NCBI GenBank assembly: GCA_035253825.1
Contig: DATFBM010000012.1
Location: 150,054-214,053, forward strand
Source: Acidimicrobiia bacterium
GTDB lineage: Bacteria; Actinomycetota; Acidimicrobiia; Spongiisociales; ZC4RG35
Direction of reading: 5' to 3'
Length of the DNA stretch: 64,000 nt
Below, in pieces: positions 40,256 through 57,986 of the stretch (the stretch's first letter is position 1; every line of letters begins with the position of its first letter). The position numbers and the translations under genes were made by a program. The notes below the pieces were generated by a model. The model was not told where the DNA came from and searched no databases. It saw nothing but the letters and a program-made list of their open reading frames with translations.

Positions 40256-42559
40256 CTATCCCTCTCCGTTGTCCGTCTTCAACCTGCGATCTTTCGATTG
40301 TGCCAGCGCCGTCCACACTGTCGCCGGGCGGAGCGGCATGTCGATATGGGTCACTCCGTAGGGGGCGAGGGCGTCGAGCACGGCATTGACGATCGCCGGG
40401 GGAGCCCCGATGCAGCCCGCCTCCCCCGTCCCCTTCGCCCCGAGGGGGTTGGAGGGGGCCGGGTGCACGAGGCGTTTGGAGCTGATCGGAGGAGCGTCGC
40501 TCGCCCGGGGTAGCGCATAGTCGACCAGGGTCGACGTGAGCAGCTGTCCCTGGTCGGAGTACTGGACTCCCTCGTAAAGGGCCTGCCCGATTCCCTGCAT
40601 TAGGGAACCATGGAGCTGGCCCTCCACGAGCATCGGGTTGAGGACATTGCCGCAATCATCGACGGCCACCATTCGGAGGAGATCCACTTCCCCGGTCTCG
40701 AGGTCCACTTCGACCACGGCGACGTGCACTCCGTATGGGAAGGTCTGGGCGCCGGGCACGAACCATTCCTCGGCCGTGAGGTCGACGCCGCGTTCGTGGG
40801 CCGCCTCGGCAACCCGCGACCAGCTCATCTCGGTTCCTGGCACCCCGGTAATCGAAAAGATTCCATTTGATATCAACACATCGGTCGACGCCGACTCGAG
40901 GAGGTCGGCGACCAACTCGATCGCCTTGTCCCTCACCACGTGGGCAGTTCGCCAGATTGCCGCTCCGCCAATCTGAGCCGACCGGCTGGCGAAGGTGCCG
41001 GTGCCCTGGGCGACTTCGTCCGTGTCGCCCGCCACGTAGCGGACATCCTCCGGGGCGACACCGAGGGCGGCCGCCGCCAGTTGCGCCCAGGCGGTCTCGT
41101 GGCCTTGGCCGGATGAGGCCGAGCCGGTTCGGACGGTAATCGCTCCGGCCCGGTCGACTTCGGTACGACCGTACTCCCCGCCGTCGACGGCGCCCCCGGC
41201 CCGCTCGACGAAGGCGCCAAAGCCCACTCCAATGGGATTGCGCCTCTCGGCGCGACGCTCCTTTTGCTCCTGTCGGAGGCGGTCCAATCCCACCAGGTCG
41301 ATGGCAAGTCGCAGGGCGGCGGCATAGTCGCCAGAGTCGTAGACAGCACCGGTCGGCGTGCGGTGGGGCAGGGCCTCAGACCGTATGAAGTTGGCCAACC
41401 GCACCTCGATGGGATCGAGATTCGCCTCCCGGGCGAAAGCATCCACAGCCCGCTCGATGGCGTACGCGGCCTCGGGGCGTCCGGCGCCTCGGTACGAACC
41501 GGTCGGCGCCGCGTTGGTGACCACCGCGGTGGTCTTCACCGACACGTTCTCGATGTCATACAGGCCGAGGGCGACCAGCCGGGAGAAGCTGGGGATCCCG
41601 GTCCCATTGTGGGGATAGGCACCGACATCGGCCAGGATGTCGATCTCGGCCCGCTCGATACGACCACTCCGTTTCCCCATGAGCTTCACTCGGTGGATCG
41701 ATCCCCGGCCGTGGGTGCCTCCGCTCAGGTGTTCGCGACGTCTTTCCGTCCACAGCACCGGTTGGGCGAGGCGGAGGGCGAGAGCCGCGGTCACAGTGTG
41801 CTCGGGGTAGGTCATTCCCTTCATCCCGAAGGCCCCTCCCACGTCGGGAACGACGATGTGGAGCTTGGTTCGATCCATCGGGATGAGCTGGGAGAGGCGC
41901 GCCTGCACGCCATGAGGTCGCTGGTGGCTGATGTACACCACGAGTCCCCCGTCCTCCTGAGGGATGGCGAGGATGACGAGAGGCTCGATGGGATTGGGAG
42001 CGAGCCGCTGGTTGACAACCTCAAGCTCGACTGCGACCTCGTAATCGCCCGAAGAATCTCCCACGGCGAGGTCAGTCCGGTGAACGACGTTGGTACCCGC
42101 CGCCTCGTGAATGATCACTTCATCGGCAAGACTTGCGCGTGGATCGACGACGGCGGTGATGGGCTCGTAATCCACCCAGACCGCATCGGCGGCGTCGACC
42201 GCCGCCGACTCGGACCTCGCAGCCACCACCGCGATGGGTTCGCCGACATAACGAACCTTCTCGTGGGCGAGGTGGGGCCGGGGAAACGCGAGGGCAGCGG
42301 CGGCAATGCTGTCCCCCGGGATATCAGCAAGATTCATATCCTCGGCGGTAAACACCCCGATCACGTCTGCTCCGAGAACGGCATCGGTGTCGATCCCGGT
42401 GATGAGAGCATGAGCCTCGGTGCTGCGCACGAAGGCGATGTGGATGCTCTCCGGAGGGGCAAGGTCGGCGACGTAACGCCCGGCACCGGTTATGAGGCGA
42501 AGGTCTTCCCGTCGCTTGGATGAGCGAGCCTCGAAATAGGTGATCTCGACCACTCCCAT
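40256..42559 (-). CDS. xanthine dehydrogenase/CO dehydrogenase-family molybdopterin-binding large subunit
   Basis: 767 aa. Ald_Xan_dh N-terminal a/b hammerhead region and a GSYRGAGRPEAAYAIER active-site loop. No FeS or FAD subunit gene is adjacent. Confidence 0.88.
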   Translation of the reverse strand: MGVVEITYFEARSSKRREDLRLITGAGRYVADLAPPESIHIAFVRSTEAHALITGIDTDAVLGADVIGVFTAEDMNLADIPGDSIAAAALAFPRPHLAHEKVRYVGEPIAVVAARSESAAVDAADAVWVDYEPITAVVDPRASLADEVIIHEAAGTNVVHRTDLAVGDSSGDYEVAVELEVVNQRLAPNPIEPLVILAIPQEDGGLVVYISHQRPHGVQARLSQLIPMDRTKLHIVVPDVGGAFGMKGMTYPEHTVTAALALRLAQPVLWTERRREHLSGGTHGRGSIHRVKLMGKRSGRIERAEIDILADVGAYPHNGTGIPSFSRLVALGLYDIENVSVKTTAVVTNAAPTGSYRGAGRPEAAYAIERAVDAFAREANLDPIEVRLANFIRSEALPHRTPTGAVYDSGDYAAALRLAIDLVGLDRLRQEQKERRAERRNPIGVGFGAFVERAGGAVDGGEYGRTEVDRAGAITVRTGSASSGQGHETAWAQLAAAALGVAPEDVRYVAGDTDEVAQGTGTFASRSAQIGGAAIWRTAHVVRDKAIELVADLLESASTDVLISNGIFSITGVPGTEMSWSRVAEAAHERGVDLTAEEWFVPGAQTFPYGVHVAVVEVDLETGEVDLLRMVAVDDCGNVLNPMLVEGQLHGSLMQGIGQALYEGVQYSDQGQLLTSTLVDYALPRASDAPPISSKRLVHPAPSNPLGAKGTGEAGCIGAPPAIVNAVLDALAPYGVTHIDMPLRPATVWTALAQSKDRRLKTDNGEG

Positions 42560-42585
42560 CCTTTATAGCTCTGCCAGCTGCGCCC

Positions 42586-42599
42586 GCACAATCGATTGC
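42586..42599. promoter_or_regulatory. candidate LacI-type operator S2 (CACAATCGATTGCA)
   Basis: Contains the perfect 10-bp palindrome CAATCGATTG. It lies in the divergent region between the Mo-hydroxylase unit and the 10-gene unit. Confidence 0.5.
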
Positions 42600-42649
42600 A
42601 GCGAGGTTAGGATCGCCTCGGGGGCGACGATCAGGCATGAAGGAGAGTC

Positions 42650-43630
42650 ATGGCCGAGAGGGTGAGGGTGGCCAGCATCGGCTTGGGGTGGTGGGGGAAG
42701 GAACTCGCTCGCGGGGCCGTGGCCGCGGGCATGGACCTGGTGGCCTGCTACGCCCGCACTGAAGAGACCAGGAAAGAGTTCGCGACAGCCCTCGGCTGTG
42801 AGCCGGCATCGAGTCTCGAAGACATTCTCACCGACCCCTCGATCGAGGCGGTGCTCATCGCCACATCACACCAAAGCCATCGTCGGTTGGTGGAGGCTGC
42901 GGCCCATGCCGGAAAGCACGTTTTCATCGAGAAGCCTCTGGCGCTGTCGGTCGAAGATGCCCGAGCTTCTCTCAAGGCGGCGGAAGCGGGCGGCATAGTC
43001 CTCCAAGTTGGATTCCAACGACGACGCCATCCTGCTCATCGAGAAATGAAGCGTCTCATCGACGACGGCGAAATCGGCGAGATCGAAACGCTAGAGGCGA
43101 ATCATTCCCTCCCCAATCGCATCGCCGAGGGTGCCTGGCGCTGGGACGAAGAAGAGAGTCCTCTCGGGTCGATGACCTCGCTGGGAATCCATCAGATCGA
43201 GAACTTTCACTACCTTGCGGGCCCTATCGCCAGGGTGGCAGCGGTGTCTCGTCGCGGCCGCACGGTTCCAATCGACGAATCCACCGCCATGGTCTTTGAG
43301 TTCGCCAGCGGAGCTGTAGGCACCCTCGTCTCCTCCTTCTTCACCCCCTGGCGCATCAGCCTCTCCGTCCAGGGGACCGAGGGGGCTGCCTTCGCCGATC
43401 GCGACGGCGCCACTCTCAGCTACCAGCGCCGGGGCGAGTCCGAGGCGACCGAGATCCGACTGAGAGAATTCGACGCCGTCGCCGATCAACTGATCGAATT
43501 CGCCACTTGCATCCGGAGTGGCAGCCACCCGGAGGTGTCCGGAGCCGAGGGTCTGGCTGTTGTCGCCGTGCTGGAGGCGGCCCAGCGCAGCGCAACCAGT
43601 GGGTGCTTCGAAGCGGTAGACGCCGGGTGA
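42650..43630 (+). CDS. Gfo/Idh/MocA-family oxidoreductase, copy 1
   Basis: 326 aa. VRVASIGLGWWGKELA Rossmann start and EKPLAL motif. Confidence 0.85.
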   Translation: MAERVRVASIGLGWWGKELARGAVAAGMDLVACYARTEETRKEFATALGCEPASSLEDILTDPSIEAVLIATSHQSHRRLVEAAAHAGKHVFIEKPLALSVEDARASLKAAEAGGIVLQVGFQRRRHPAHREMKRLIDDGEIGEIETLEANHSLPNRIAEGAWRWDEEESPLGSMTSLGIHQIENFHYLAGPIARVAAVSRRGRTVPIDESTAMVFEFASGAVGTLVSSFFTPWRISLSVQGTEGAAFADRDGATLSYQRRGESEATEIRLREFDAVADQLIEFATCIRSGSHPEVSGAEGLAVVAVLEAAQRSATSGCFEAVDAG

Positions 43631-43638
43631 CGAGGGCG

Positions 43639-44625
43639 ATGGGCCAAAGACGACCCAAGGTGGCGATTCTCGGAACCCGCTTCGGCGGTTTTGATGTCGA
43701 GCGCCAGATTCTCGGCGATGTTGAACTCAGTTCGGGTCACGCCCGAAACCGCGCCGAGATCTTGGAGGTGGCGACGGGAGCAGATGTGATTCTCGCCGGT
43801 GCCGCGCCGGTGTTCGACGCCCAGACGCTGGAGGCATTGCGGGCTCGGGCGATCGTCCGTCTCGGAGTCGGCACCGACACTATCGATCTCGACGCTGCTC
43901 GTCAGCTGGGCATGTGGGTAGCAAACGTACCGGACTACGGGACTGAGGCCGTCGCCTTGCACACGGTGACCCTCGTTCTCGCCTGCCTTCGCCGATTGAC
44001 TCAGGCCGACCGCCAGATGAAGAGTGGCGCGTGGGGCGTGGCCGACTTGCGTCCGCTCCATCTACCGCCGTCGCTCACCGTCGGATTGATCGGATTCGGG
44101 CGGATCGGTCGACGTGTCGCCCAGATGCTGAAGGGTGTCGGGTTTGACCGCTTCTTGGTGGCAGATCCGATACCCGCTGCTCTCAGCGGAGACCTTGCAG
44201 ACCTCAATGTCAAGTTCGTCAAACTACCTGACGTTCTTACCACCGCTGACGTCGTGAGCCTGCACGCTCCCCCGGAAGCCCGCGGCCATCTGCTCGGGTC
44301 TTCTGAATTGAGTCTGATGAAAGAGGGTTCGGTTCTGGTCAACACGGCCCGGGGAGCCTTGGTTGACGCCGTTGCCCTCATTAGCGCACTCGCCCAAGGC
44401 CGGCCGGCGATGGCGGCTCTGGATGTCTTCGAGCACGAACCGCCCGATGTCACGATTTTCGAGGGCATCGGTGATCACTTGATCCTCACACCGCATATGT
44501 CCTGGTACACCGAGGAGAGCGAGCTGGCTCTTCGTCGACAGGGAGCAGCCGAGGCGCTCCGAATTCTCCAATCCCAACCGCCACTAAACGCGGTGGTGAC
44601 GCCTGCCGGGAGCGAAGTTTCGTGA
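43639..44625 (+). CDS. D-isomer-specific 2-hydroxyacid dehydrogenase
   Basis: I use the start MGQRRPKVAILG at 43639. NAD site GLIGFGRIGRRVAQML, plus VNTARGALVD and TPHMSWYT. Confidence 0.85.
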   Translation: MGQRRPKVAILGTRFGGFDVERQILGDVELSSGHARNRAEILEVATGADVILAGAAPVFDAQTLEALRARAIVRLGVGTDTIDLDAARQLGMWVANVPDYGTEAVALHTVTLVLACLRRLTQADRQMKSGAWGVADLRPLHLPPSLTVGLIGFGRIGRRVAQMLKGVGFDRFLVADPIPAALSGDLADLNVKFVKLPDVLTTADVVSLHAPPEARGHLLGSSELSLMKEGSVLVNTARGALVDAVALISALAQGRPAMAALDVFEHEPPDVTIFEGIGDHLILTPHMSWYTEESELALRRQGAAEALRILQSQPPLNAVVTPAGSEVS

Positions 44626-45386
44626 GCCCGACCCTCCGCTCGATCTACGACCTGACCTCGCCCGACGTCCGTGAACTCCTCGACCGCAGCCGACGGGTGG
44701 TGATGCCGTTTGGAAGCATCGAGCAGCACGGCCCCCATCTCCCCTGTGGAACTGACATGATGGCAGCCGACCTGGTGGCGGTGGAGCTCGCCGAGATCCT
44801 CGACGCGATCATCGTCCCCGCCGGCCCCTATGGGGTTACCCCGATTCATGCAGGCCACCCGGGCACTGTCTCGTTACGACGAGACGTCTTCGAGCGGTAT
44901 CTTGCCAACCTCTCTGAAGAGATGGTTGCGATGGGTGCTCGCACCTTCGTCTTTGTCAATTGGCATGAAGGCAACATCGCCTCGCTCGACTCGGTAGCTA
45001 CCGACCTCCAGTCAAAGAACGACGTGCTCGTGGTCACCGCCCACGCCTGTTACACCGCGCAGCGCATCTATGCGCCGGCTGGGGGCGAGCTCACTCACGG
45101 GGGAGGAATAGAGACCCTCGCCGTCCTAGCCCACCAGCCCGAGCTGGCCCGCCTCAACCGGGCTGGGATGCCCACGAGACCAGAAGGAGCCGAAGAGCTC
45201 GATGCCATGCGACGTTCGCGCGAGGTCTACGGCTACATAACTGATATCACCGAGATCGCCGATCAAGGCTGGTATGGAAATCCGGCCTGGGCCGACGAAT
45301 CTGCGGCGGCTGACTTTGCCCAGACCGTCGCTACTGAGATTGCGGTAGCCGTCGAGGAGATCTTGAAAATGAGAGGTCGGTCATGA
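44622..45386 (+). CDS. creatininase-family amidohydrolase
   Basis: 254 aa. PFGSIEQHGPHLPCGTD metal-site motif. GTGA overlap with the upstream gene. Confidence 0.8.
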   Translation: MSPTLRSIYDLTSPDVRELLDRSRRVVMPFGSIEQHGPHLPCGTDMMAADLVAVELAEILDAIIVPAGPYGVTPIHAGHPGTVSLRRDVFERYLANLSEEMVAMGARTFVFVNWHEGNIASLDSVATDLQSKNDVLVVTAHACYTAQRIYAPAGGELTHGGGIETLAVLAHQPELARLNRAGMPTRPEGAEELDAMRRSREVYGYITDITEIADQGWYGNPAWADESAAADFAQTVATEIAVAVEEILKMRGRS

Positions 45387-45769
45387 CCGTCGTCGGACCA
45401 GGGGAACTCGAGTTCCGCGAACTCCCGGGCCGGACGACCTCCGATCCTTTCCGGAATGCGGGGCACGGCGCTTCGACGGTGCGCCAGGTCACGATCGAAT
45501 ACGTCCCTTCCCGGTCTCCTCACCTACATCCCGAAAGTGAGGAGATTGTCTACGTGGTTGCCGGGACCGGCCGGGTTTGGCTCGATGGAGTCTTCCACCC
45601 GGTCGGACCTGGCAGCTGGTATCGAATCCCGGCGCGCACACCCCACGCCACCTTGGCTGATCAGGGCGAGACGATGTCCCTTTGCTGCTTCTTCCCCCAC
45701 GACGACTTTGCCAACAACATCGAAGAGCTCGACCTGATAATCAGCGCCGAGGAGGGAGGAGGGAAGTGA
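45383..45769 (+). CDS. cupin-domain protein
   Basis: 128 aa. SPHLHPESEEIVYVVAGTGRVWLDG and PARTPHA cupin motifs. ATGA overlap. Confidence 0.75.
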   Translation: MTVVGPGELEFRELPGRTTSDPFRNAGHGASTVRQVTIEYVPSRSPHLHPESEEIVYVVAGTGRVWLDGVFHPVGPGSWYRIPARTPHATLADQGETMSLCCFFPHDDFANNIEELDLIISAEEGGGK

Positions 45770-46824
45770 CTAAGGGAGTGAAGCTCGCATCGATTGGGTT
45801 AGGGCGGTGGGCCCGGGTCCTGGCACGGGGAGCGCAAAGAGGATCGGTGATTGAGCTGGCGAGCTGCTTCTCCCGCTCGGCCGAGCGCCGCGCCGCCTTT
45901 CAGGAAGAGTTTGGCATCCCCAAAGCGGCAGCAACCCTGGACGAGCTGTTGGCCGACCCCGAGATCGAAGGGGTATTGGTGACCACGCCCAACGACACCC
46001 ACAAGGCCGTGATCTTGGAGAGCTTGGATGCCGGCAAGGCGGTCTACACCGATAAGCCGATCGCCCACACCATGGAGGATGCGGGAGTGATCGCCCGGGC
46101 GGCCGCCGCCTCGGGCCTGCCCTTTGCGGTGGGCCATAGCGCACGCCGGCTTGGTGGACATCGAGCAATGAAGCAATGGATCGAGACCGGGAAGGTGGGG
46201 CGGGTTTCGCTGGCCGAGGCGAACTTCTCCAACGAGCGGGGACTGGAGCTGACCACTGACACCTGGAGGTGGTTCGCCGACAAGAGCCCGGGCGGGGCGA
46301 TGATCCAGCTCGGCGTTCATCACGCCGACAACCTGCAGTACCTGCTTGGCCCGGTGGCGGCCGTTTCCAGCCACGCCCGCAAGCTCTACACCCGGGCCGA
46401 GGTCCCCGATGCGGTCATGTCGATCCTCGAGTTCGAGTCGGGACCGCTTGGCTACCTGGGAACGGGATGGGCCTCACCCGGGGTCTATCAGCTCCGGCTC
46501 CAAGGAACGGAAGCCAATCTGTTCTACGACCTCGACTTCAACAATTGGGATGAGTCCCACCAGGTCGACTCGAAGAGCACCTTGGTCAGCCAGGCCTATC
46601 GAGAGTCGGTGAGGCCACCAGTCGACATCCCCTCCACCGACATGTTCCGCGAGCAGCTAGACGAGTTCGCCCTCGCCATTCGGGGGGAGGCCGAGGTCGA
46701 GGTGGGAACGCTGGAGGCGATCCGAGCCCTGGCCGTGGTCCACGCCGCCTTGGAATCCTCACAACGAAATGGTGAGGCAGTAGCGGTAGCACCGATGGTG
46801 GAGAGGGCCGGAGCCCTCCAATGA
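45766..46824 (+). CDS. Gfo/Idh/MocA-family oxidoreductase, copy 2
   Basis: I use GTG at 45766 (GTGA overlap with the cupin stop). VKLASIGLGRWARVLA and DKPIAH motifs. Confidence 0.85.
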   Translation: MTKGVKLASIGLGRWARVLARGAQRGSVIELASCFSRSAERRAAFQEEFGIPKAAATLDELLADPEIEGVLVTTPNDTHKAVILESLDAGKAVYTDKPIAHTMEDAGVIARAAAASGLPFAVGHSARRLGGHRAMKQWIETGKVGRVSLAEANFSNERGLELTTDTWRWFADKSPGGAMIQLGVHHADNLQYLLGPVAAVSSHARKLYTRAEVPDAVMSILEFESGPLGYLGTGWASPGVYQLRLQGTEANLFYDLDFNNWDESHQVDSKSTLVSQAYRESVRPPVDIPSTDMFREQLDEFALAIRGEAEVEVGTLEAIRALAVVHAALESSQRNGEAVAVAPMVERAGALQ

Positions 46825-47924
46825 GGGTCGATCCAGCCACCACTCGCACCCTGCACCACGAGGACCCGCAGGTTCAAGAGGTCCTCGACATCTGGGCGGC
46901 GCGGTTTCTCCATGGTCAGATCGAGCTGGGCGATCTGACGACGACGGTCGGCCGGATCAAAGGGTGGTCGGACTGGGGACCCGAATGGATGAAAACGGGT
47001 CAGGGCCACGAGGAGCTGGGTGAAACAGCCTGGGCCGAGGGTCGTCGCCTTTCGGCGGTGAGCCATTTCGTTTCGGCGGCGCGTTGCTACCACCTCTCCT
47101 ACTTCCTCTCCGTCGATGACGAGGAGGCCCATTCCCGGGGCCTGGCCAAGATGTTGGAGTGTCACGATCGGGTTCTCCCCTACATGGAGCCCGCGGTCGC
47201 GAAAATCGCCATTCCCTTTCTTGGAGCCGATCTCTCAGGGCTGTTGAGCATCCCCGCCGGCGAGGGTCCCCACCCGCTGGTGATTCTTCTCCCAGGCTTG
47301 GACTCGACCAAGGAGCAACGCCACGGTGGGCGAGGCTCGCTACTTCGCCGCGGAATGGCGGTGCTCAGTCTCGACGGCCCCGGCCAAGGCGAGATCAGCC
47401 TCAAGCTGCCAATCCGCCACGACTACGAGGTGGCCGTCTCCGCCGCCATCGATCTCCTGAACGATGACGATCGAATTGATGCCAGCCGGGTGGGCCTGAT
47501 CGGAGCCAGCCTGGGTGGCTATTACGCCTGCCGGGCGGCCGCCTTCGAGCCGCGGGTGAGCGCGGCCGTGGCCAACTGCGGCCCTTATCGCTGGATCGAG
47601 TGCTGGGACGAGCTGCCGGCGGTGACCAGAGATGCATTTCGCAAGTACTCGTGGTCGTCCTCGGCGGACGAGGCCCGAGAAAAAGCCAAGGCCCTCGACC
47701 TCACCGGTGTCGCCGAGAGGATCTCCCAGCCTTTGCTTGTGGTCCACGGCATGCTCGATCCCCTGATCGGTGTCGACCATGCCCAGCGCATCGCCGCAGA
47801 GGCACCCAACGCCACTCTGATCACGATTGAAGAAGCCACCCACGGAGTCAGCAACCTGGCCTACAAGTTCGCTCCATGGACAGACGATTGGATGGCGGAG
47901 AGGTTGGGCGGGCGGGTCAGGTGA
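46821..47924 (+). CDS. alpha/beta hydrolase with an N-terminal helical lid (FrsA/DUF1100-like, C-C hydrolase-like)
   Basis: 367 aa. Nucleophile elbow IGASLGGYYA. ATGA overlap. Paralogous architecture to 52227..53378. Confidence 0.75.
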   Translation: MRVDPATTRTLHHEDPQVQEVLDIWAARFLHGQIELGDLTTTVGRIKGWSDWGPEWMKTGQGHEELGETAWAEGRRLSAVSHFVSAARCYHLSYFLSVDDEEAHSRGLAKMLECHDRVLPYMEPAVAKIAIPFLGADLSGLLSIPAGEGPHPLVILLPGLDSTKEQRHGGRGSLLRRGMAVLSLDGPGQGEISLKLPIRHDYEVAVSAAIDLLNDDDRIDASRVGLIGASLGGYYACRAAAFEPRVSAAVANCGPYRWIECWDELPAVTRDAFRKYSWSSSADEAREKAKALDLTGVAERISQPLLVVHGMLDPLIGVDHAQRIAAEAPNATLITIEEATHGVSNLAYKFAPWTDDWMAERLGGRVR

Positions 47925-49681
47925 CCTCCCGCGGGGACGAGCACACGTTCGCCATCTCGGCCGACGGGATGTGCATTGACTACCAGGTGCCGGTGACGAT
48001 GAGCGATGGGGCCGTATTGCGGGCCGACGTCTTCCGACCCGAGACCGATGGCCAGTACCCGGTGATTCTCTCCCATGGCGTCTACGCCAAGGGTCTTCCC
48101 TTCAATGGCCCCATCTACCGGATGCAGTGGGACAAACTGGTGGCCAAGGACCCATCGCTCCTCGAGTGCTCGACAGGGAAGTACCAGGCGTGGGAGGTAA
48201 CAGACCCCGAGCGCTGGGTCCCCTCCGGCTACGTCGTGGTGCGGGTCGACTCGCGCGGGGCTGGTTGGTCGCCGGGCATCCTTTGGCCGCGCAATCCGAA
48301 GGAGTACGACGACATCGCCGAGTCGGTGGAGTGGGCAGCATCCCAGCCCTGGAGCGATGGTCGGGTGGGAATCATGGGCATCTCCTATTACGCGGTGATG
48401 GCGTGGGCGGCGGCTGAACGCCAGCCTGATCACCTCGCCGCCATCATCGCCTGGGAAGGCTTCAACGATCCCTACCGGGATGCCTATTACCACGGTGGCA
48501 TCCTCAGCGAATTCACCAGGCGCTGGCAGGAGCGTCAGATCAATCCGATCCAATATGGGCGCGGCTCGCGCGCTCCGGTGAACCCCAACACCGGACAGTC
48601 GGTCGCCGGCCCCGTCGATCTTTCCGAAGAAGAGCTCGCCGCCAACCGAGTGGAGTCGTTCCCCGACATCAAGGCCCATCCCCTCGACGACGAATGGCAT
48701 CGAGCCCGCGCTATCGGCCTAGAGAAGGTGACTGTTCCATTTCTGTCGGCGGCCAACTGGGGCGGGCAAGGGATCCACCCCCGCGGCAACTTTCGTGGAT
48801 TCGTTGAAGCGGCTTCGGGCCAGAAATGGCTTGAGGCCCATGGCGACACGCATTGGACTCATTTCTACTCCGAATACGGGCGCGACCTGCAGAAGCGATT
48901 CTTCGACCATTTCTTAAAAGGCGAGGACAACGGCTTCGACCGCACACCCCGAGTTCAGCTCAACATCCGTCATCCCGGTGAGAAATTCGAGTGGCGGGGA
49001 GAGAACGAGTGGCCCTTGGCCCGCACCATCTGGACGACGCTCCACCTCAATGGCGACCAGGCTCTTTCCACCGAGCCGGCCGCGACGGCAACCTTATGGC
49101 AGTACGACCCCATGGGCGAGGGGCTCCATTTCGCCATGGCGCCCTTCACCGAAGAGACCGAAATAACGGGGCCGCTTGCCGCCAAGCTGTTCATCTCTTC
49201 GACGACGAAGGACGCCGATCTCTTTCTCATCCTGCAGTTGTTCGATCCCGGCGGCAACGAGGTGACGTTCGAAGGTTCCACCGACCCCAACACGCCCATC
49301 GCCAATGGATGGCTCCGCGCCTCCCACCGCGCCCTCGACCCGATGAGAAGCAAGCCATGGCAGCCCTTTCATCTCCACGATCGCATCGACCCTCTCCAAC
49401 CGGGTGTGGTCTACGAGCTCGACATCGAGATCGTCCCCACCTGCATCGTGGTTCCTACCGGCTATTGGCTCGAGCTCTGGGTCAGGGGCAGGGACTACGA
49501 GTACCGGGGACCGCTCGACGAGTACGGCCAGGCCTTTTATTACGCCACCCGCGGCACCGGAGGTATGACCCACGCTGACCCCGACGACCGGCCAGAGGAG
49601 CTTTTCGGAGGACAGGTCACCCTGCACGCCGGCCCCCACCACCCCTCACACCTCCTCGTACCTCTCGTACCGCCAAAATGA
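47921..49681 (+). CDS. CocE/NonD-family (S15) serine hydrolase, copy 2
   Basis: I use GTG at 47921 (GTGA overlap). YPVILSHGVYAKG, VRVDSRGAGWSPG and IMGISYYA. Collinear with copy 1. Confidence 0.85.
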   Translation: MTSRGDEHTFAISADGMCIDYQVPVTMSDGAVLRADVFRPETDGQYPVILSHGVYAKGLPFNGPIYRMQWDKLVAKDPSLLECSTGKYQAWEVTDPERWVPSGYVVVRVDSRGAGWSPGILWPRNPKEYDDIAESVEWAASQPWSDGRVGIMGISYYAVMAWAAAERQPDHLAAIIAWEGFNDPYRDAYYHGGILSEFTRRWQERQINPIQYGRGSRAPVNPNTGQSVAGPVDLSEEELAANRVESFPDIKAHPLDDEWHRARAIGLEKVTVPFLSAANWGGQGIHPRGNFRGFVEAASGQKWLEAHGDTHWTHFYSEYGRDLQKRFFDHFLKGEDNGFDRTPRVQLNIRHPGEKFEWRGENEWPLARTIWTTLHLNGDQALSTEPAATATLWQYDPMGEGLHFAMAPFTEETEITGPLAAKLFISSTTKDADLFLILQLFDPGGNEVTFEGSTDPNTPIANGWLRASHRALDPMRSKPWQPFHLHDRIDPLQPGVVYELDIEIVPTCIVVPTGYWLELWVRGRDYEYRGPLDEYGQAFYYATRGTGGMTHADPDDRPEELFGGQVTLHAGPHHPSHLLVPLVPPK

Positions 49682-50604
49682 CGATGATTCAGCCGATCAG
49701 ATACATTCCGCACTTGATGCGGATGGTCAGCCCCCACCGGATTGCCGTTGGAATCAGTCTCGTGCTTGCCGCCTGCTCGGGCCCTGGAACCCCTACCGAC
49801 CCGACGCCGGCGCCATACGCCGCCGACGTCGATGTTGGGGGCCGAAAGCTCCACATCGTCTGCGCTGGCCCGACCAACACCGGTAGGCCGACGGTCGTCT
49901 TCGAGAATGGTGGCGGCCCCACCTTTCGGACCTGGTCCCGAGTGATGGACGAACTCCAAACCACGGACAGAAGCTGCGCCTACGATCGAGCCGGCATCGG
50001 ACTCAGTGATGCCGCGCCGATGCCATGGACGAGGCGAGATCAGGTAAACGACCTCGCCACTCTGCTCGATGCTGCTGGCGTCGGCGGCCCGATCATCCTC
50101 GTCGCCCACAGCCTCGGTGGCTGGAACGCGATCGTCTTCACGGCCGATCACCCAGATCGAGTCGTAGGGGCCGTCCTCGTAGATATCTTGCCCCCAGGAC
50201 TCGAGCGCCGACTGCTCGAGGAGTTGCCGCCCGAGGGGCCGGGCGAGCCCGAGGTCGTCCGCCAGGCCCGGGAGGAATTCACGGCCTTCTGGACTGACCC
50301 GTCGATGAACCCAGAAGGACTCCACATCGCCGACAGCGAGGCACAAGTGTTGGCCGCCCCAGGCTTCGGCGGTCGTCCGACTGAGGTCCTATGGGCAACC
50401 GACACAGAGCTAACCGTGTGGCCGGGCTTCGAACCCAATCTTGTCGCACGGCTCAATGCCGCCATCGAGGATCTCCGCCGCGAGGTAGAAGGGCTAGCCG
50501 ATAACCCAAATGTCACCTGGATCGACACGGGCCACGCCATCCAGGAGGAGCGCGCCGAAGTCGTCATCGAGGCCATACGGCGAGTCTTGGACCAGCTCGC
50601 GTGA
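49678..50604 (+). CDS. secreted alpha/beta hydrolase lipoprotein
   Basis: 308 aa. Signal plus lipobox VGISLVLAACSG. Nucleophile elbow VAHSLGGW. ATGA overlap. Confidence 0.75.
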   Translation: MTMIQPIRYIPHLMRMVSPHRIAVGISLVLAACSGPGTPTDPTPAPYAADVDVGGRKLHIVCAGPTNTGRPTVVFENGGGPTFRTWSRVMDELQTTDRSCAYDRAGIGLSDAAPMPWTRRDQVNDLATLLDAAGVGGPIILVAHSLGGWNAIVFTADHPDRVVGAVLVDILPPGLERRLLEELPPEGPGEPEVVRQAREEFTAFWTDPSMNPEGLHIADSEAQVLAAPGFGGRPTEVLWATDTELTVWPGFEPNLVARLNAAIEDLRREVEGLADNPNVTWIDTGHAIQEERAEVVIEAIRRVLDQLA

Positions 50605-52187
50605 CGACGACCACAGATTTCGTCGTTGCCGGTGGAGGCCACAACAGCCTGATCACCGCGGCTTACCTGGCAAAGGCGGGTTACGAGGTGGTGGTCCTCG
50701 ACGCTCGGCGCGAGGTGGGTGGAGGCGCCTCCACCGAGGAGATCCTGCTCCCCGGGTTCTGGTTCGACACCTGCTCCACCGGCCACACCCTGATCCAGGT
50801 GAATCCACTGCTCGCAAGGGACGAGCTGGGATTGCTGTCGGAGTTCGGCCTTCAGTATCTCGATCCTGATCCGGTGGCGCATGTCGTCTTCCCCGATGGC
50901 GAACGGTTCACCATGTGGCTCGACCTCGACCGCACCCTCGACGAGATCGGGAGGTTCTCAAAGAGCGATGCCGCCGCCTACCGACGGATGCTCGAGGAAT
51001 TCGACGCGGTGAAGGGAATCTATGGCGAATACCGCTTCACTCCCATCGGGTATGGCCCTTCCCTCGAGGAAAGACTCGCCAATCAACCGATGGGCACGGT
51101 GTGGATGCGCCGCAACGTCATGTCGGCCTGGGAGGTGATCCGACGGGAATACGAGAGCCGGCACGTGCGCGCCTTCATGGCGTGGATGGCGTTCCAAACG
51201 GCCCAGCCCCTCGAGTCACCTGGCTCCGGCTATCTGGCTTACTCCTTGGTCGGAGGTCGTCAGCGGCGGAGTTGGTCGGTTCCGGTCGACGGTTCTTCGA
51301 GCCTGCCCAGGGCCATCGTCGCGGCTCTCGAGAAAGCGGGCGGCACAGTCATCACCGATACGTTGGTGACCTCCCTGATCGTGGAGGGGGGGCGGTGCGT
51401 CGGGGTGGAGAGCGATGGCGGGACCCAGTATCGGGCTCGTAAGGGCGTGGTCTCCTCGATCCATATCAAGAGGCTGGTCGAGATGGCGCCCGCCGCCGTC
51501 TGGGGTGAAGGCTTTCTCTACGGTGTCGACACCTACGACCCGGGGCTCTCCTCGTTCGCTTCCTACTACGCCACCAGTGAGGCCCCCAGATTTCCGACCG
51601 ACGACGGAGAGATCGAACCCGTCTCGGCGGGACCGGCGCCATGGGTCGAGGACGTCATCGAGTTCGGGCGGGGGTTGCGCGAGGGTCGGCTCCATCGACC
51701 AGGGACATTCCTCCTCTTCGCCACTCCCACCATCATCGACCCCTCTCGCGCCCCGGAGGGAAAGCACACGGTGAAGATCCTCAGCCTCGCTCCCTACGAA
51801 GCTCCCGCCGACCTTGGTGATTGGGAAACGGGGAAGGAAGTTCTGGCGGAGGAGCATCTACGGGTCCTCCAGCAGTGCGCTCCCAACCTGACGGATGAGA
51901 TGATTCTCGCCCGCAAGGCCAAGAGCCCAGTCGACATCGAGGCGGCCAATCCCCACATGTTTCGAGGGACCATCCATGGCGGCGACCGGAGTCTCGCCTA
52001 CGGCGGCGCCCAGCGACCGGTCCCCGGTTGGGCCCAACACCGGATGCCCATCCCCGGCCTTTATCAGACCGGTGCCACCACCCACCCCGGCGGATCGATC
52101 ACAGGAGGCCCGGGAAGGAATGCAGCAATCGTCATCCTGAATGATCTCGGCACCACTATCGAAAAAGTTGTCTCAAACGAACCCTAA
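50601..52187 (+). CDS. FAD-dependent oxidoreductase, phytoene-desaturase/amine-oxidase (CrtI-like) family
   Basis: 528 aa. DFVVAGGGHNSLITAAYLAKAGYEVVVLDAR dinucleotide fold. GTGA overlap. Confidence 0.8.
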   Translation: MTTTTDFVVAGGGHNSLITAAYLAKAGYEVVVLDARREVGGGASTEEILLPGFWFDTCSTGHTLIQVNPLLARDELGLLSEFGLQYLDPDPVAHVVFPDGERFTMWLDLDRTLDEIGRFSKSDAAAYRRMLEEFDAVKGIYGEYRFTPIGYGPSLEERLANQPMGTVWMRRNVMSAWEVIRREYESRHVRAFMAWMAFQTAQPLESPGSGYLAYSLVGGRQRRSWSVPVDGSSSLPRAIVAALEKAGGTVITDTLVTSLIVEGGRCVGVESDGGTQYRARKGVVSSIHIKRLVEMAPAAVWGEGFLYGVDTYDPGLSSFASYYATSEAPRFPTDDGEIEPVSAGPAPWVEDVIEFGRGLREGRLHRPGTFLLFATPTIIDPSRAPEGKHTVKILSLAPYEAPADLGDWETGKEVLAEEHLRVLQQCAPNLTDEMILARKAKSPVDIEAANPHMFRGTIHGGDRSLAYGGAQRPVPGWAQHRMPIPGLYQTGATTHPGGSITGGPGRNAAIVILNDLGTTIEKVVSNEP

Positions 52188-52226
52188 GGCTTCAGCAGGC
52201 GGATTCGGCATGTTTCAGCCTTTGGT

Positions 52227-53378
52227 ATGCGAAAGGAGGTTGGTTTGACGCTCGAGCTGGGCTTTGCCCCCAACGAGGACCCCTTTGTCATCGTCCACGG
52301 TGGCTTCTACCGGCGTTGGTACTCAATGATCGACGACATCTCCGAACTGGAATCAGCCGTCGCTCGCCTCGAGGGAACGACCCAGGACAAGTGGGTCCCG
52401 GTGTGGGAAGAGCTCGGGCGTCGGCACGAAGCGGAGGGGGATCGGCTAGAGGCGACGGGTGATTTCGAAGGATCGAGGCGCTCCTATCTCCAGGCCAAGA
52501 CCTACTACGCCATCGGCCGATTTCCCGGCGAAGTCTCGGAGGTCAAGCGCCGGATCAGCGACGACTGCGCCCGCGCCTATCGGAAGGCCTGCGCTCATCT
52601 CGACCCGCCGGTCGAAATTGTCGAGTTCGAGCATCAGGGCAAGACGATCCGAGCCCATTTTCGATCACCCCATTCCAAAGTCCCGGTTCCTGCGGTCCTC
52701 GTCATGTGCGGCGCCGACGTTTTCAAAGAGGACCGTGGCTGGGCACAAGACATGTGCATCGAAAACGGCCTCGCCGCCCTGGTAATGGATGGTCCCGGGA
52801 CCGGGGAGAACCCATTCCCCTGGGCCCCGGAGTCAGTGAGCGCCTGGGAGGCGGCGGTGGACTATCTCGCCGCTCGCCCCGAGGTGGACGGTGATCGGAT
52901 CGGGGCGTTCGGGATCAGCCGCGGTGGTTACTCAGTCCTGCAGCTGGCCGGCACCGCCCCCGACAAGCTCAAGGCGGTGGTGGCCAGCGCCGGCCATCCC
53001 TTCGGGTATGTCATGGATGACGAGGAGCTCGAGGAGTTCGTGCGGGTCCGCAACGAGCGGGCAGAATGGCGCTTCGGCGCTCCTGAGGATCCTCCCTCGT
53101 TTCCTTCGACCTCTATCGAGCAGGAGCGGGCTGATTTCTCCCGCTGGGCGCTATCCGAACAGGGGATCCTCGACAACATCACGATGCCGGTGTTGATGAT
53201 CAATGGCAAGCTCGACCATCTGGCACCGATCGGGAACATCTACTTCATGCTCGAAACCGGGCCTGCCACCGGCAAGGAAGCTCGCATCTATCCCGACGAT
53301 GGTCATTGTGCTTTCAAACACTTCAATCATTGGGCCCCTGCGACGTTCCGGTGGCTGGCCGAGAAGCTGGGTCGGTAG
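52227..53378 (+). CDS. alpha/beta hydrolase with an N-terminal helical lid (FrsA/DUF1100-like), copy 2
   Basis: 383 aa. Nucleophile elbow FGISRGGY. C-terminal DDGHCAF. Confidence 0.75.
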   Translation: MRKEVGLTLELGFAPNEDPFVIVHGGFYRRWYSMIDDISELESAVARLEGTTQDKWVPVWEELGRRHEAEGDRLEATGDFEGSRRSYLQAKTYYAIGRFPGEVSEVKRRISDDCARAYRKACAHLDPPVEIVEFEHQGKTIRAHFRSPHSKVPVPAVLVMCGADVFKEDRGWAQDMCIENGLAALVMDGPGTGENPFPWAPESVSAWEAAVDYLAARPEVDGDRIGAFGISRGGYSVLQLAGTAPDKLKAVVASAGHPFGYVMDDEELEEFVRVRNERAEWRFGAPEDPPSFPSTSIEQERADFSRWALSEQGILDNITMPVLMINGKLDHLAPIGNIYFMLETGPATGKEARIYPDDGHCAFKHFNHWAPATFRWLAEKLGR

Positions 53379-54819
53379 CCGCGAACGGACCGCGCTCGAT
53401 TTCACCTCGGGATGTAAGAACGGCCGAGCCGGCCCGGGGACGGATGTTCTGGTTGTGGTGGAACACGTTCTCCGGGTCGTATTCCGCCTTGACCTCGGCC
53501 AGTCGTTGGTAGACCGCGCTGCCATAAGCCTCTTCGACCCGGTCGGGTTCTTCATCGCCACCGAGGAAGTTGACGTACACCCCTTCCCGGTATTCATCGA
53601 GGGCGGTGAAGAAGCGCTTGGCCCATGCGATGTCTCCGTCGGCATAGTCGTCGCCAGGCCGCCACACGCCGTCGAGAGTGACGGCATGAGAGGCCCGTCG
53701 GTTCCCGAACGCAGTGGCCCCTACCGGCACCCGACTCACCGCGCCGCCCAGGTGAAACATGGCCACGTAGGACCGCGGGGAAGAGGCGGCGAACGCGTTC
53801 TCGACCATCACCTTGATCAGGTGGTCGTCTAGCTCGGGAAGATACGTCGACTTCCAGTAGTAGTTCCAGCCGTGCGCCACCGTGGAGTCGAGAGCACTTT
53901 GGTGATTGACATACGGTGATGTTGCGATGAGATCGAGGAGCGGCTTTCCAAAAGCTCGCAAAGGTCGGATTACATCTTCAGCCTCCTCGACCGGTCCTGC
54001 GAAACAGACGCCCACCAAAACGACGGGCCGCCAATGCAGATCCTCAGGGATGACGGGTAGAGGCGGAGCAGTGCCGAATCTCACCACAGTCCCGAGTTCG
54101 TCAGGGGCATTCCTAATGAACTCGCGGTAGAAGTGGAGAACCTCGACGGCGTCATCGGCGCTCCACAAAATGGGACCCGCCAAGACCCCTGGGCCGAGGG
54201 GGTGGAGCTGGAACTCGAAGGACGTGACGACACCAAAGTTGCCGCCCCCTCCCCGCAGCCCCCAGAAAAGGTCGGGATGCTGGTCCTCTGACGCCCGCAG
54301 GAAGTCGCCGTCCGCTGCCACGACGTCGGCGGCGCGCAAGTTGTCGATCGTTAGACCCTGCTTGCGCATCAGCCAGCCGATGCCACCGCCAAGCGTTAGA
54401 CCGGCGACACCGGTGTGGCTGATGATTCCGCCGGTCGTAGCCAGTCCGTGGATCTGTGTTCGTCGATCGACGTCGCTCCACAGGGCCCCGCCCTGCACGT
54501 GGACCGTACGGCGGTCAGGATCAACTCGGACCTCCCGCATTGCGGTGAGGTCGATGACGATGCCGTCGTCACAGACAGCGGTCCCGGCGACGTTGTGGCC
54601 CCCACCCCGGATCGCGATCTCCAAGTCGTGCCGGCGGGCGAACCGTAACGCGGCGATCACGTCGGCGTTCCTCTGGCATCGCGCAATCACGAGCGGGTGG
54701 CGGTCGATGATTCCGTTCCAGACGGCTCGGGCAGCGTCGTATTCGGCGTGACCAGCCGTGATCACCTCGCCCGAGAACTGGTCGATCTTCATGGTCGTTG
54801 CCTCCTTCGGGTGCTCCAA
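53323..54819 (-). CDS. FAD-linked oxidase of the PCMH/berberine-bridge-enzyme-like family
   Basis: 498 aa. FAD_binding_4 region with AIRGGGHNVAG, where the His sits at the position used for covalent FAD in this family. C-terminal BBE signature YDPENVFHHNQNIRP. The 3' tail overlaps the convergent gene by 56 nt. Confidence 0.85.
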   Translation of the reverse strand: MEHPKEATTMKIDQFSGEVITAGHAEYDAARAVWNGIIDRHPLVIARCQRNADVIAALRFARRHDLEIAIRGGGHNVAGTAVCDDGIVIDLTAMREVRVDPDRRTVHVQGGALWSDVDRRTQIHGLATTGGIISHTGVAGLTLGGGIGWLMRKQGLTIDNLRAADVVAADGDFLRASEDQHPDLFWGLRGGGGNFGVVTSFEFQLHPLGPGVLAGPILWSADDAVEVLHFYREFIRNAPDELGTVVRFGTAPPLPVIPEDLHWRPVVLVGVCFAGPVEEAEDVIRPLRAFGKPLLDLIATSPYVNHQSALDSTVAHGWNYYWKSTYLPELDDHLIKVMVENAFAASSPRSYVAMFHLGGAVSRVPVGATAFGNRRASHAVTLDGVWRPGDDYADGDIAWAKRFFTALDEYREGVYVNFLGGDEEPDRVEEAYGSAVYQRLAEVKAEYDPENVFHHNQNIRPRAGSAVLTSRGEIERGPFAATDPASRPATGTSQGPND

Positions 54820-56924: not shown

Positions 56925-56927
56925 TGA

Positions 56928-57911: not shown

Positions 57912-57941
57912 CTCCTCGCGCTAACAGCCAGCGACATAGCG

Positions 57942-57955: not shown

Positions 57956-57986
57956 CACGTTTGCGCATTTCGGGGCAATCAGGGAT

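Follow-up and report, generated by a model that had tools for sequence, protein, structure and literature searches.

The ten genes at 42650-53378 of the 64-kb stretch of DNA analysed here (64,000 nt, the window), from a soil-type Acidimicrobiia-like bacterium, are, to judge from their packing, a real operon forming one compact co-directional unit. This operon is probably (probability about 0.55) a substrate-inducible catabolic operon within a LacI-family regulon that has three or more transcription units. No recognised pathway had been assigned to it in an earlier, sequence-only reading, and this holds: no known pathway fits and no block protein reaches an equivalog-level cut-off in NCBIfam, so every catalytic role given below is assigned by family analogy.

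Ten plus-strand open reading frames tile the block in the order proposed earlier (Table 1), and the ten family labels proposed with it were reproduced by Pfam and NCBIfam profile searches. The seven claimed start/stop overlaps all read as described, with GTGA at 44622, 45766, 47921 and 50601 and ATGA at 45383, 46821 and 49678. The two other junctions as called, g1/g2 and g9/g10, have the expected gaps of 8 nt and 39 nt, the latter being the largest internal gap of the block. An in-frame GTG at 43627 is an alternative start of g2, which would create an eighth GTGA overlap, with the stop codon of g1. Overlaps are also far denser here than chance and the window baseline would give, a 4-nt overlap being possible at 8/9 block junctions vs 5/28 same-strand junctions elsewhere in the window. 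The overlaps, which suggest translational coupling of the block genes, are mostly retained in orthologous loci, and locus L003 has one at each junction between g2 and g10. The stoichiometric co-expression read from them earlier is more than such overlaps show. Automatic annotation of the source contig places the starts of g5, g7 and g8 elsewhere. The overlapping starts of g5 and g7 are supported because the alignment with their orthologues begins at residue 1 and most orthologues retain the overlap. For g7/g8 the overlap is less certain, since the N-terminus of g8 is not conserved and a later Met (residue 14 or 16) would give a more canonical lipoprotein signal.

Table 1. Features of the ten-gene block and of its surroundings (positions in the window).
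Feature	Position	Strand	Basis or context
u5, CocE/NonD hydrolase	35487-37259		53% identical to g7
u4, LacI-family regulator, candidate repressor of the regulon	37212-38237	-	
Second operator copy ACAAACGATTGC (predicted)	38337-38348	.	between LacI gene u4 and u3
u3, beta-hydroxyacid dehydrogenase (tartronate-semialdehyde reductase/HIBADH-like)	38389-39324	+	
u2, alpha/beta hydrolase	39353-40252	-	downstream of u1
u1, molybdenum hydroxylase large subunit	40256-42559	-	divergent from g1, operator region in common with g1
LacI-family-type operator ACAATCGATTGC (predicted)	42588-42599	.	90-nt divergent u1/g1 intergenic region
-10-like TAGGAT	about 42608-42614		3' of operator ACAATCGATTGC
g1, Gfo/Idh/MocA NAD(P) oxidoreductase, 326 aa	42650-43630	+	Pfam, NCBIfam
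g2, D-isomer 2-hydroxyacid dehydrogenase, 328 aa	43639-44625	+	Pfam, NCBIfam
g3, creatininase-fold metal amidohydrolase, 254 aa	44622-45386	+	Pfam PF02633, 170.4 bits (gathering score 31.3); PDB matches
g4, monocupin (Cupin_2), 128 aa	45383-45769	+	Pfam; H-x-H-x3-E ... H metal motif
g5, Gfo/Idh/MocA oxidoreductase, 352 aa	45766-46824	+	Pfam, NCBIfam
g6, two-domain alpha/beta hydrolase, DHPON hydrolase/AntI/Ayg1 clade	46821-47924	+	PDB 2JBW and AntI matches
g7, CocE/NonD (S15) hydrolase, 586 aa	47921-49681	+	TIGR00976, PF02129, PF08530
g8, predicted exported alpha/beta hydrolase lipoprotein	49678-50604	+	signal peptide, L-A-A-C lipobox
g9, CrtI/CrtO-like FAD flavoprotein, 528 aa	50601-52187	+	profiles, structure model and Foldseek
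g10, second two-domain hydrolase, same clade as g6	52227-53378	+	PDB Wdyg1, Afyg1 and 2JBW matches
Third operator copy GCAAACGATTGG (predicted)	59201-59212	.	upstream of transporter operon
d6-d8, Dpp/Opp-type ABC importer: family-5 binding protein and two permeases	59246-62947	+	

The LacI-type palindrome GCAAWCGWTTGC precedes g1, the LacI gene/u3 pair and the downstream Dpp-type ABC transporter. Its pattern GCAAWCGATTGC has 7 matches in the window (1.97 expected), of which just three fall between genes, each in a promoter region, and allowing up to two mismatches does not change this; no further copy was found elsewhere in the intergenic DNA of 33-64 kb, nor any operator copy inside the ten-gene block. 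Because the same palindrome precedes all three units, the functional unit is read as a multi-operon regulon, larger than the block and made up of at least three transcription units. The proposal that the ten-gene block is itself the functional unit is thus given up; flanking genes also travel with g9 (u1, u2, u3, u4, d4 and d5 co-occur with it in distant genomes). The palindrome is kept at the equivalent position, upstream of g1/g2, in L003, L004, L007 and L023, and the transporter-site motif has the same position in L004. Across the related loci, the motif was found at 46 intergenic sites in 30 loci, an 8-fold intergenic enrichment; these sites precede transporter, u3, CocE-g9-g10 and Gfo genes, and equivalent promoters across Actinomycetota are marked by the same motif.

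The predicted operator is of the LacI/PurR type, a central-CG palindromic 12-mer in the promoters of the targets and of the regulator itself, and its core exactly matches the PurR box, GCAAACG(T/A)TTGC (PMC3739930, Table 1). The targets here, however, are catabolic and not purine biosynthetic as in the PurR regulon, and u4, which scores best on the RbsR, CytR and UriR models, is below all cut-offs. The u4 product is a candidate for the protein that binds the palindrome. LacI homologues adjoin g9 in distant loci, where the LacI genes are themselves preceded by variants of the motif. A search with the strict motif found it together with LacI in only 6-10 loci, and this improved only once the CGT variant was allowed.

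The gene-neighbourhood check across genomes found the orthologues co-localised and most of the block conserved as a unit. The g1/g2-g7, g9 and g10 genes have the same order in five loci of related Acidimicrobiia MAGs (L003, L004, L005, L007 and L023), and u1 is syntenic in L003, L004, L007 and L023. Conservation as a unit is seen for nine genes, and what is ruled out is a fixed set of ten. None of the 80 related loci has g8, and in them g7 is followed directly by g9 (-4 to +16 nt); g8 is a lineage-specific insertion between them, and its homologues (66-82% identity) stand alone as genes in other genomes. The g1 gene is present in L004 and L007 and missing from L003 and L023. Sub-modules also occur separately: L008-L016 and L022 carry g7-g9-g10, which has an operator of its own there, L024 and L026 carry g2-g5 plus g9, and L013 carries g2-g5 plus g7 and g9. 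The block is a patchwork in which smaller modules have been fused around a conserved pair, g9 and a DHPON-hydrolase-like enzyme. The g9 gene is the conserved anchor of the neighbourhood, the core being g9 and the g6-like hydrolase, which stands alongside it in 40/72 loci; distant neighbourhoods of g9 also have u3, at about 60% identity.

Since other genomes have the modules apart, there need not be one substrate for all ten enzymes. Two or three independent catabolic modules (g1-g5/g6, g7-g9-g10 and g8) with unrelated substrates might have come under one promoter through an accidental fusion, in line with the separate gene sets, the stand-alone homologues of g8 and the dispensability of g1 in L003 and L023. 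Yet all of these modules carry the same operator and have g9 as a common member even when apart, five MAG loci keep the fused order although their g9 is as little as 70% identical, and the overlapping stop/start codons are preserved over the g5/g6 and g6/g7 boundaries in orthologous loci, which makes such independent modules rather unlikely.

The g6 and g10 proteins (26% identity to each other) are, by sequence, homologues of the C-C-cleaving DHPON hydrolase/AntI/Ayg1 clade and not generic esterases. In the PDB, g6 matches 2JBW (6.3e-45) and AntI (6.8e-23), and g10 matches Wdyg1 (1.1e-25), Afyg1 (2.4e-22) and 2JBW (4e-16). Both align over the full length with these enzymes, a predicted N-terminal helical domain included (g6 residues 18-360 with 2JBW 23-362; g10 residues 61-350 with Wdyg1 and 74-381 with Afyg1). 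The catalytic residues of g6 are Ser230, Asp313 and His341, with the serine in G228-x-S230-x-G232, and this GxSxG motif, D313 and H341 are invariant in an alignment of nine family members including g6 and g10. In this clade, the G-L-D(S) loop provides the oxyanion-hole amide and the Asp of a keto-enol network (PMC11165489). The loop is GLDS in g6 and GADV in g10, its Gly and Asp being invariant across the family alignment, so both proteins keep the G-x-D oxyanion/tautomerisation loop besides the Ser, Asp and His of 2JBW, AntI, Afyg1p and Wdyg1p. They differ in that the substrate-pocket Tyr301 and Trp309 of Afyg1p are apparently not conserved in g10 (alignment reading), and that the context here is catabolic and LacI-controlled and is neither a nicotine plasmid nor a PKS cluster. 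The plain esterase FrsA is also a detectable relative (g6 and g10 are FrsA-like by Pfam/NCBIfam), so the relationship does not prove C-C cleavage. The sequence-only reading had called both proteins lid-bearing alpha/beta hydrolases, which is right as to the hydrolase family and misses the two-domain, C-C-hydrolase-like type; its count of four ester/amide/C-C-type hydrolases overstated the ester theme, since g6 and g10 group with the C-C-cleaving clade.

The g9 protein has an FAD Rossmann motif and a predicted CrtI-type FAD fold (model pLDDT 77.6, pTM 0.82), for which the top Foldseek matches are CrtI 4DGK and CrtD 4REP (TMq 0.72). The best sequence family match is also to this group, CrtO at 240.7 bits, but g9 is far below the family cut-offs (1000 for CrtO; 86.2 vs 238.1 for crtI_fam), and unlike CrtI, CrtO and CrtD it has hydrolases, importers and a LacI regulator as conserved partners. 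The carotenoid genes crtB, crtE and crtY were not found beside the block or in the related loci examined. Isoprenoid genes are represented solely by one for a polyprenyl synthase, some 40 kb away at 1427-2425. The g7 protein passes the CocE/NonD subfamily cut-off of TIGR00976 (253.6 vs 66.3 bits) and has PF02129 and PF08530 (PepX_C) domains; u5 is likewise above this cut-off, with S15 and PepX_C domains. The match of g7 to cocaine esterase is only 1.6e-25, and its nearest solved relative is 3IB3, a Staphylococcus structural-genomics protein of unknown function (2.8e-86).

Among the remaining enzymes, g1 and g5 (35% identity) have IolG as their best NCBIfam match, at 136.9 and 112 vs an equivalog cut-off of 355, and are placed by Pfam in the Gfo/Idh/MocA superfamily only. 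The g5 protein is the most conserved of the block, with 84-93% identity in orthologous loci, and its best PDB match is 3DB2 (function unknown, 1.3e-79). The g3 translation shows E34-x-H36, D45, H115 and H159, which we take to be metal ligands as in the creatininase of P. putida, and the protein is under the equivalog cut-offs of MftE (94 vs 172), creatininase (80.6 vs 235) and IolN (45.5 vs 245). The g4 cupin has a weak match to RemF.

In the inositol route of Thermotoga maritima (NCBIfam models TIGR04380, NF041097 and NF041098), a diketone is formed by two dehydrogenases and then hydrolysed by an enzyme of the creatininase fold. The same logic could apply to two IolG-like dehydrogenases with a creatininase-fold hydrolase that weakly matches IolN, and in L003 a g3 paralogue adjoins a Zn-ADH with an IolM-model score of 222 bits, a pair seen in related loci. 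The block might be a variant of the Thermotoga IolG-IolM-IolN cyclitol pathway or of a known N-heterocycle pathway, the nicotine pyridine route of Paenarthrobacter/Arthrobacter, which is paralleled by the DHPON hydrolase homologue, the Mo-hydroxylase large subunit u1, the amine-oxidase-fold flavoprotein and d1, a relative of 6-hydroxy-D-nicotine oxidase (6.5e-55). Such a variant is improbable: the scores are far under the equivalog cut-offs (those for IolG and IolN above, and IolM 222 vs 450), g3 fits the MftE and creatininase models better than that of IolN, and no equivalents of 2,6-dihydroxypyridine hydroxylase, IolO, IolK or other downstream genes were seen here. The u1 large subunit stands alone, the small and medium subunits of the Mo-enzyme not being found in the window, and d1, which is lineage-specific, matches EncM at 409 bits and 6HDNO at only 190 bits. 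A nicotine pyridine-pathway cluster, in which three-subunit Mo hydroxylases, 2,6-dihydroxypyridine hydroxylase and 6-hydroxynicotine oxidases accompany DHPON hydrolase, was rejected on the lone Mo large subunit, the hydroxylase not found and the EncM-nearer d1.

The likeness of d1 to EncM (1.7e-121) also bears on a biosynthetic reading, in which the block would be the tailoring part of a secondary-metabolite cluster, with AntI/Ayg1-like trimming, a cupin cyclase, ketoreductases and the neighbouring EncM-like oxygenase. The biosynthetic enzymes Ayg1/Wdyg1, AntI and AbyA5 are among the closest relatives of g10 and g6 with solved structures, and the weak RemF match of g4 fits as well. This reading is very improbable, given that no PKS, NRPS, terpene synthase, ACP or exporter was found in the 64-kb window or the related loci, that importers, peptidases and a LacI repressor surround the block, that d1 is missing from relatives, and that g6 matches the DHPON hydrolase, a catabolic enzyme, better than any other.

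In the preferred catabolic reading, the ABC system would import a small polar compound, which would relieve repression. The transporter binding proteins are nearest to dipeptide/amino-acid binders, that of d6-d8 to dipeptide/glutathione binders, which suggests an amino-acid- or peptide-like compound. The NAD(P) enzymes g1, g5 and g2 and the flavoprotein g9 may oxidise a secondary alcohol or C-C/C-N positions to ketones and beta-dicarbonyl-type intermediates, which g6 and g10 (Ser-His-Asp) would cleave by retro-Claisen C-C hydrolysis. The g3 and g7 enzymes could open cyclic amide, ester or amide bonds, the metal cupin g4 might isomerise or oxygenate an intermediate, and g8, a recent add-on, may act outside the cell on an esterified precursor and so set the substrate free.

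As to substrate class, a compound with ester and hydroxyl groups that is either N-containing and cyclic or derived from an amino acid is put forward tentatively; a cyclitol or sugar-derived compound is less likely, and a polyketide or polyphenol-type beta-diketone is unlikely. A catabolic character is supported by the ABC importers, M24 hydrolases, aldehyde dehydrogenase and amidohydrolase_2 genes of the neighbourhoods, in which PKS, NRPS and terpene core genes were not found. It is possible, if doubtful, that the regulon is an undescribed catabolic pathway, widespread in soil Actinomycetota (Acidimicrobiia, Thermoleophilia, Solirubrobacterales and Streptosporangiaceae), in which a CrtO/CrtI-like flavoprotein acts on a small non-carotenoid and DHPON-hydrolase/Ayg1-type retro-Claisen cleavage follows. 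If so, this would be the first catabolic role for the flavoprotein clade of g9 and a new source of C-C hydrolases, and the substrate could be an abundant, overlooked soil compound, e.g., an alkaloid-, aminocyclitol- or mycosporine-like one. The LacI-type regulator and the two sugar-type Gfo dehydrogenases fit a carbohydrate better, and the transporters point to an amino-acid-like substrate.

The ten consecutive forward-strand genes g1-g10 form, we conclude, one operon of a LacI-family regulon, which also comprises the LacI regulator gene u4, the beta-hydroxyacid dehydrogenase gene u3 and the Dpp/Opp-type ABC importer genes d6-d8. The genes u1-u2, for a Mo-hydroxylase large subunit and an alpha/beta hydrolase, are probably in the same regulon. 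The sequence-only reading had described ten open reading frames, seven start/stop tetranucleotides and two remaining junctions of 8 and 39 nt; all of these were recovered, and every family label was reproduced by Pfam and NCBIfam. Its observation of a tightly coupled unit is thus confirmed, and its interpretation as a dedicated route without a recognisable pathway is supported in part. For g5, g7 and g8, automatic gene prediction for the source contig (ENA ERZ27257138, k141_867565, 92.8 kb) placed the starts elsewhere. The overlapping starts of g5 and g7 are supported, since orthologue alignments begin at residue 1 and the overlap is usually kept. The g7/g8 overlap is uncertain, because the N-terminus of g8 is unconserved and a start at Met14 or Met16 would yield a more canonical lipoprotein signal. 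An eighth overlap could be formed at g1/g2 via an in-frame GTG. A 4-nt overlap is possible at 8 of the 9 junctions inside the block versus 5 of 28 same-strand junctions elsewhere in the window, so the compaction is a real property of the block and not merely of the genome.

Positions of the features discussed (window coordinates unless a related locus is named)
Feature	Position	Strand	Remark
Block g1-g10	42650-53378	+	g1, g5 Gfo/Idh/MocA; g2 D-2-hydroxyacid dehydrogenase; g3 creatininase family; g4 cupin; g6, g10 two-domain alpha/beta hydrolases; g7 CocE/NonD; g8 lipoprotein alpha/beta hydrolase; g9 CrtI/CrtO-like flavoprotein
Start/stop overlaps	44622, 45766, 47921, 50601	+	GTGA
Start/stop overlaps	45383, 46821, 49678	+	ATGA
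In-frame GTG, g1/g2	43627	+
Palindrome, u1/g1 gap	42588-42599
Promoter of block	42560-42649
u5	35487-37259	+	CocE/NonD hydrolase
u4	37212-38237	-	LacI regulator
u1	40256-42559	-	Mo-hydroxylase large subunit
d1	53323-54819	-	EncM-like flavoenzyme
d2	54933-55622		HxlR regulator
d6-d8	59246-62947	+	ABC importer
Transporter flanks	55623-59144, 62951-63964
FtsH-type genes	10252-12246; 27413-29350	-; +	AAA/M41 proteases
Zn-dependent alcohol dehydrogenase and g3 paralogue	L003 19268-21141	-
g8 homologue locus	L083 10001-13805
Interrupted g5 orthologue	L004 6067-6411		gap or in-frame stop
Interrupted Gfo gene	L027 12629-13612		gap or in-frame stop

The 90-nt intergenic region between u1 and g1 carries the palindrome ACAATCGATTGC, followed by TAGGAT, and the same palindrome is positioned at the equivalent place in four related loci (L003, L004, L007 and L023). 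With at most one mismatch allowed, GCAANCGNTTGC occurs 7 times in the window (1.97 expected), and the intergenic DNA of 33-64 kb contains exactly three operator-motif sites, even at two mismatches. These are located in the u4/u3 gap, in the u1/g1 gap and upstream of d6-d8. Among the related loci, 46 intergenic copies of the strict motif are spread over 30 loci; the motif is 8-fold enriched relative to coding DNA and typically lies upstream of the transporter, u3, CocE-g9-g10 or the first Gfo gene. Co-occurrence of LacI genes with the strict motif is weak (6-10 loci) and becomes better only once a CGT-centred variant, GCAAACGTTTGC, is allowed; this variant is present in most LacI-containing loci without the strict motif, including positions upstream of the LacI genes themselves. 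The operator core is the PurR box tabulated in PMC3739930, a match that informs on the type of DNA binding and not on the effector. From these data, we infer that u4 binds the palindrome. The main value of the finding is practical, as the conserved operator in the block promoter and the regulator u4 offer a direct route to the inducer, and hence a handle on the substrate.

For the comparison of gene neighbourhoods, 80 genome loci around g9 homologues were used, onto which the window proteins were mapped by tblastn, and de novo ORFs were clustered as well. The order g2-g3-g4-g5-g6-g7-g9-g10 is found in five Acidimicrobiia loci (L003, L004, L005, L007 and L023; g9 identity 70-86%). A divergent u1 borders the genes in all five, and four also have d3/d4 at the opposite end. 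Among the five, g1 is present only in L004 and L007, and in L003 a 4-nt overlap occurs at each junction from g2 to g10. The g8 gene was found in none of the 80 loci, where g7 and g9 abut (-4 to +16 nt), and its homologues (82, 69 and 66% identity) are free-standing genes with unrelated surroundings; g8 is therefore a lineage-specific recruit. Conservation of the block as a unit thus holds for g2-g7, g9 and g10 and fails for g8, and its modules also occur separately: g7-g9-g10 beside genes for an M24 peptidase and a Dpp-type transporter (L008-L016, L022), g2-g5 joined directly to g9 (L024, L026), and g2-g5 with g7 and g9 (L013). In Thermoleophilia, Solirubrobacterales and Streptosporangiaceae, a g9 about 60% identical has a different neighbourhood, consisting of amidohydrolase_2, a g6-like hydrolase, Gfo and a Mo-hydroxylase with a CoxS-like subunit, together with a Liv-type ABC importer, creatinase-like M24 enzymes, a DHDPS-like enzyme, a LacI regulator and a u3-like dehydrogenase (60% identity). 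Where the g9 ORF is intact (72 loci), its commonest partners are the g6-like hydrolase (40), the Liv binding protein (32), amidohydrolase_2 (29) and the Mo large subunit (24). Synteny, separate modules and partner counts together make the block a conserved but mosaic super-operon around g9. That independent modules were fused by accident, as the separate modules might suggest, is unlikely beside the gene order kept in five loci. The search with g3 returned close relatives only (at least 73% identity) and no distant contexts for the g2-g5 module.

The hydrolases g6 and g10 had been read as lid-bearing alpha/beta hydrolases; they are no generic esterases but homologues of the C-C-cleaving clade of 2,6-dihydroxypseudooxynicotine (DHPON) hydrolase, AntI and Ayg1. 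The matches of g6 are DHPON hydrolase (6.3e-45) and AntI (6.8e-23), those of g10 Wdyg1 (1.1e-25) and Afyg1 (2.4e-22). A family alignment including both keeps the G-x-D loop, GxSxG-Ser230, Asp313 and His341, and such a loop with Ser/Asp/His is given for the C-C-cleaving alpha/beta hydrolase class (PMC11165489). Although the esterase FrsA is likewise a relative, g6 and g10 are candidate C-C hydrolases by these family features. All creatininase-fold metal motifs are present in g3, whose scores fall short of the creatininase, MftE and IolN cut-offs. In L003, L036, L071, L075 and L082, a g3 paralogue (33-37% identical to g3) is directly preceded by a gene for a Zn-dependent alcohol dehydrogenase. 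The score of this dehydrogenase with the IolM model, 222 bits, ties with that for threonine dehydrogenase and is below the cut-offs; the arrangement is reminiscent of the IolM/IolN pair in the Thermotoga inositol route. The g7 protein passes the CocE/NonD subfamily cut-off, and its nearest structure, 3IB3, is of unknown function. A second CocE/NonD gene, u5 (53% identical to g7), converges on u4 with a 48-nt tail-to-tail overlap; L027 has a u5-like gene (68% identity) that diverges from the operator-bearing promoter of the transporter.

The most conserved protein of the block is g5, with nearest structure 3DB2 (function unknown), and g4 is a 128-aa metal cupin weakly similar to quercetinase domains and KdgF. 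The g9 protein has a CrtI fold (model pLDDT 77.6); Foldseek placed CrtI and CrtD on top and NicA2-type amine oxidases next, without separating desaturase-like from amine-oxidase-like function. Its best family score, CrtO at 240 bits, is far under the cut-off, and a carotenoid role was rejected because no carotenoid genes lie nearby and the scores are below cut-offs. More than 3700 database clusters match g9 at E < 1e-20, and all of the 120 listed have generic names ("phytoene dehydrogenase-like", "NAD(P)/FAD-dependent oxidoreductase") or none.

Among the ten block proteins and ten neighbours, no equivalog assignment passed its cut-off apart from the broad CocE/NonD subfamily, which agrees with the earlier view that the block has no recognisable pathway. 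A variant of the nicotine or Thermotoga inositol pathways, to which DHPON hydrolase and IolN kinship would point, is improbable: every equivalog score fell below its cut-off in membership tests, which rejected both pathways, and key genes are missing. Literature searches on the creatininase, CocE/NonD and phytoene desaturase gene combination, on DHPON hydrolase with Acidimicrobiia, on IolN with creatininase and on tropine beta-diketone hydrolase returned nothing relevant.

The evidence, in which operon compaction, gene-order conservation, mosaic origin, the shared operator and the family and fold assignments are direct observations, supports a repressor-controlled catabolic route. A small polar compound would be imported, and the three NAD(P) dehydrogenases and g9 would oxidise hydroxyl or C-C/C-N positions to beta-dicarbonyl-type intermediates. 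These may be cleaved by g6 and g10 through retro-Claisen hydrolysis, while g3 and g7 might open cyclic amide, ester or amide bonds and g8 may act as a recent extracellular helper. Families that produce or cleave ketones and beta-dicarbonyls appear repeatedly (the C-C hydrolase clade, the IolN creatininase-fold precedent, cupin dioxygenase relatives and the EncM-like d1 recruited beside the block), which by analogy lends the model some coherence. Several features speak for an N-containing cyclic or amino-acid-derived substrate, namely the Mo-hydroxylase, the amine-oxidase-like fold of g9, the hydrolases of M24 and creatininase type and the relatives of the transporters; in both lineages, the transporter binding proteins have dipeptide, glutathione and amino-acid binders as their nearest relatives. 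The LacI regulator and the Gfo enzymes point to a sugar- or cyclitol-derived compound, and the AntI/Ayg1/EncM relatives to a polyketide-like beta-diketone. That the block is the tailoring part of a biosynthetic cluster, as the last relatives might suggest, is very improbable.

The finding is a genuine, uncharacterised and widely distributed catabolic regulon of known enzyme families, not a new kind of system. As it stands, it is one among many uncharacterised catabolic clusters of soil Actinomycetota and mechanistically unsurprising. Solving the pathway would give a function to a large CrtI-like flavoprotein family and extend the short list of characterised serine C-C hydrolases by catabolic enzymes from bacteria.

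Homologues of d4 and d5, located after the block, accompany g9 in distant genomes, so these two genes are probably part of the pathway; in the window, no copy of the operator was detected between d4 and d5. The transporter is flanked by two M24 (creatinase/prolidase-like) hydrolases, a DHDPS-family enzyme and a PLP-dependent (PALP) enzyme. For u1, which scores 599 bits with the glyceraldehyde dehydrogenase alpha model and so misses its cut-off of 790, no CoxS-like or CoxM-like subunit genes were found in the whole 64-kb window; in distant g9 neighbourhoods, the small subunit adjoins the large one. The d1 gene, which converges on g10 with a 56-nt overlap of 3' ends, strongly matches the flavin-N5-oxide oxygenase EncM (PDB 4XLO, 1.7e-121) and also 6-hydroxy-D-nicotine oxidase (6.5e-55). 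Together with the adjacent d2, it is absent from all syntenic relatives, in which d3/d4 directly follow g10, and d1-d2 is therefore a lineage-specific insertion. The g8 homologue most similar to the operon copy (82% identity) is in L083, close to genes for a further alpha/beta hydrolase and an HxlR-family regulator, a context hinting that g8 and the d1-d2 insertion derived from a similar locus. The interruptions in L004 and L027 may equally be sequencing errors or pseudogenes, since both loci come from MAG assemblies.

The Rfam scan of 35-64 kb revealed no riboswitches or leaders, the sigma-70 scan no promoter-like sites, and the intrinsic-terminator scan background level only, so that the latter two were uninformative. 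Base composition is uniform across the window, whose first 35 kb hold housekeeping genes (topA, two ftsH, lysS, panC, coaX, folK, tilS and holB) and whose remainder from 35.5 kb holds catabolic or transport genes. The closest named database relatives are Acidimicrobiia MAGs, and the source replicon is probably the chromosome of an Acidimicrobiia member. The two FtsH-type protease genes of the housekeeping part lie at most 17 kb apart.
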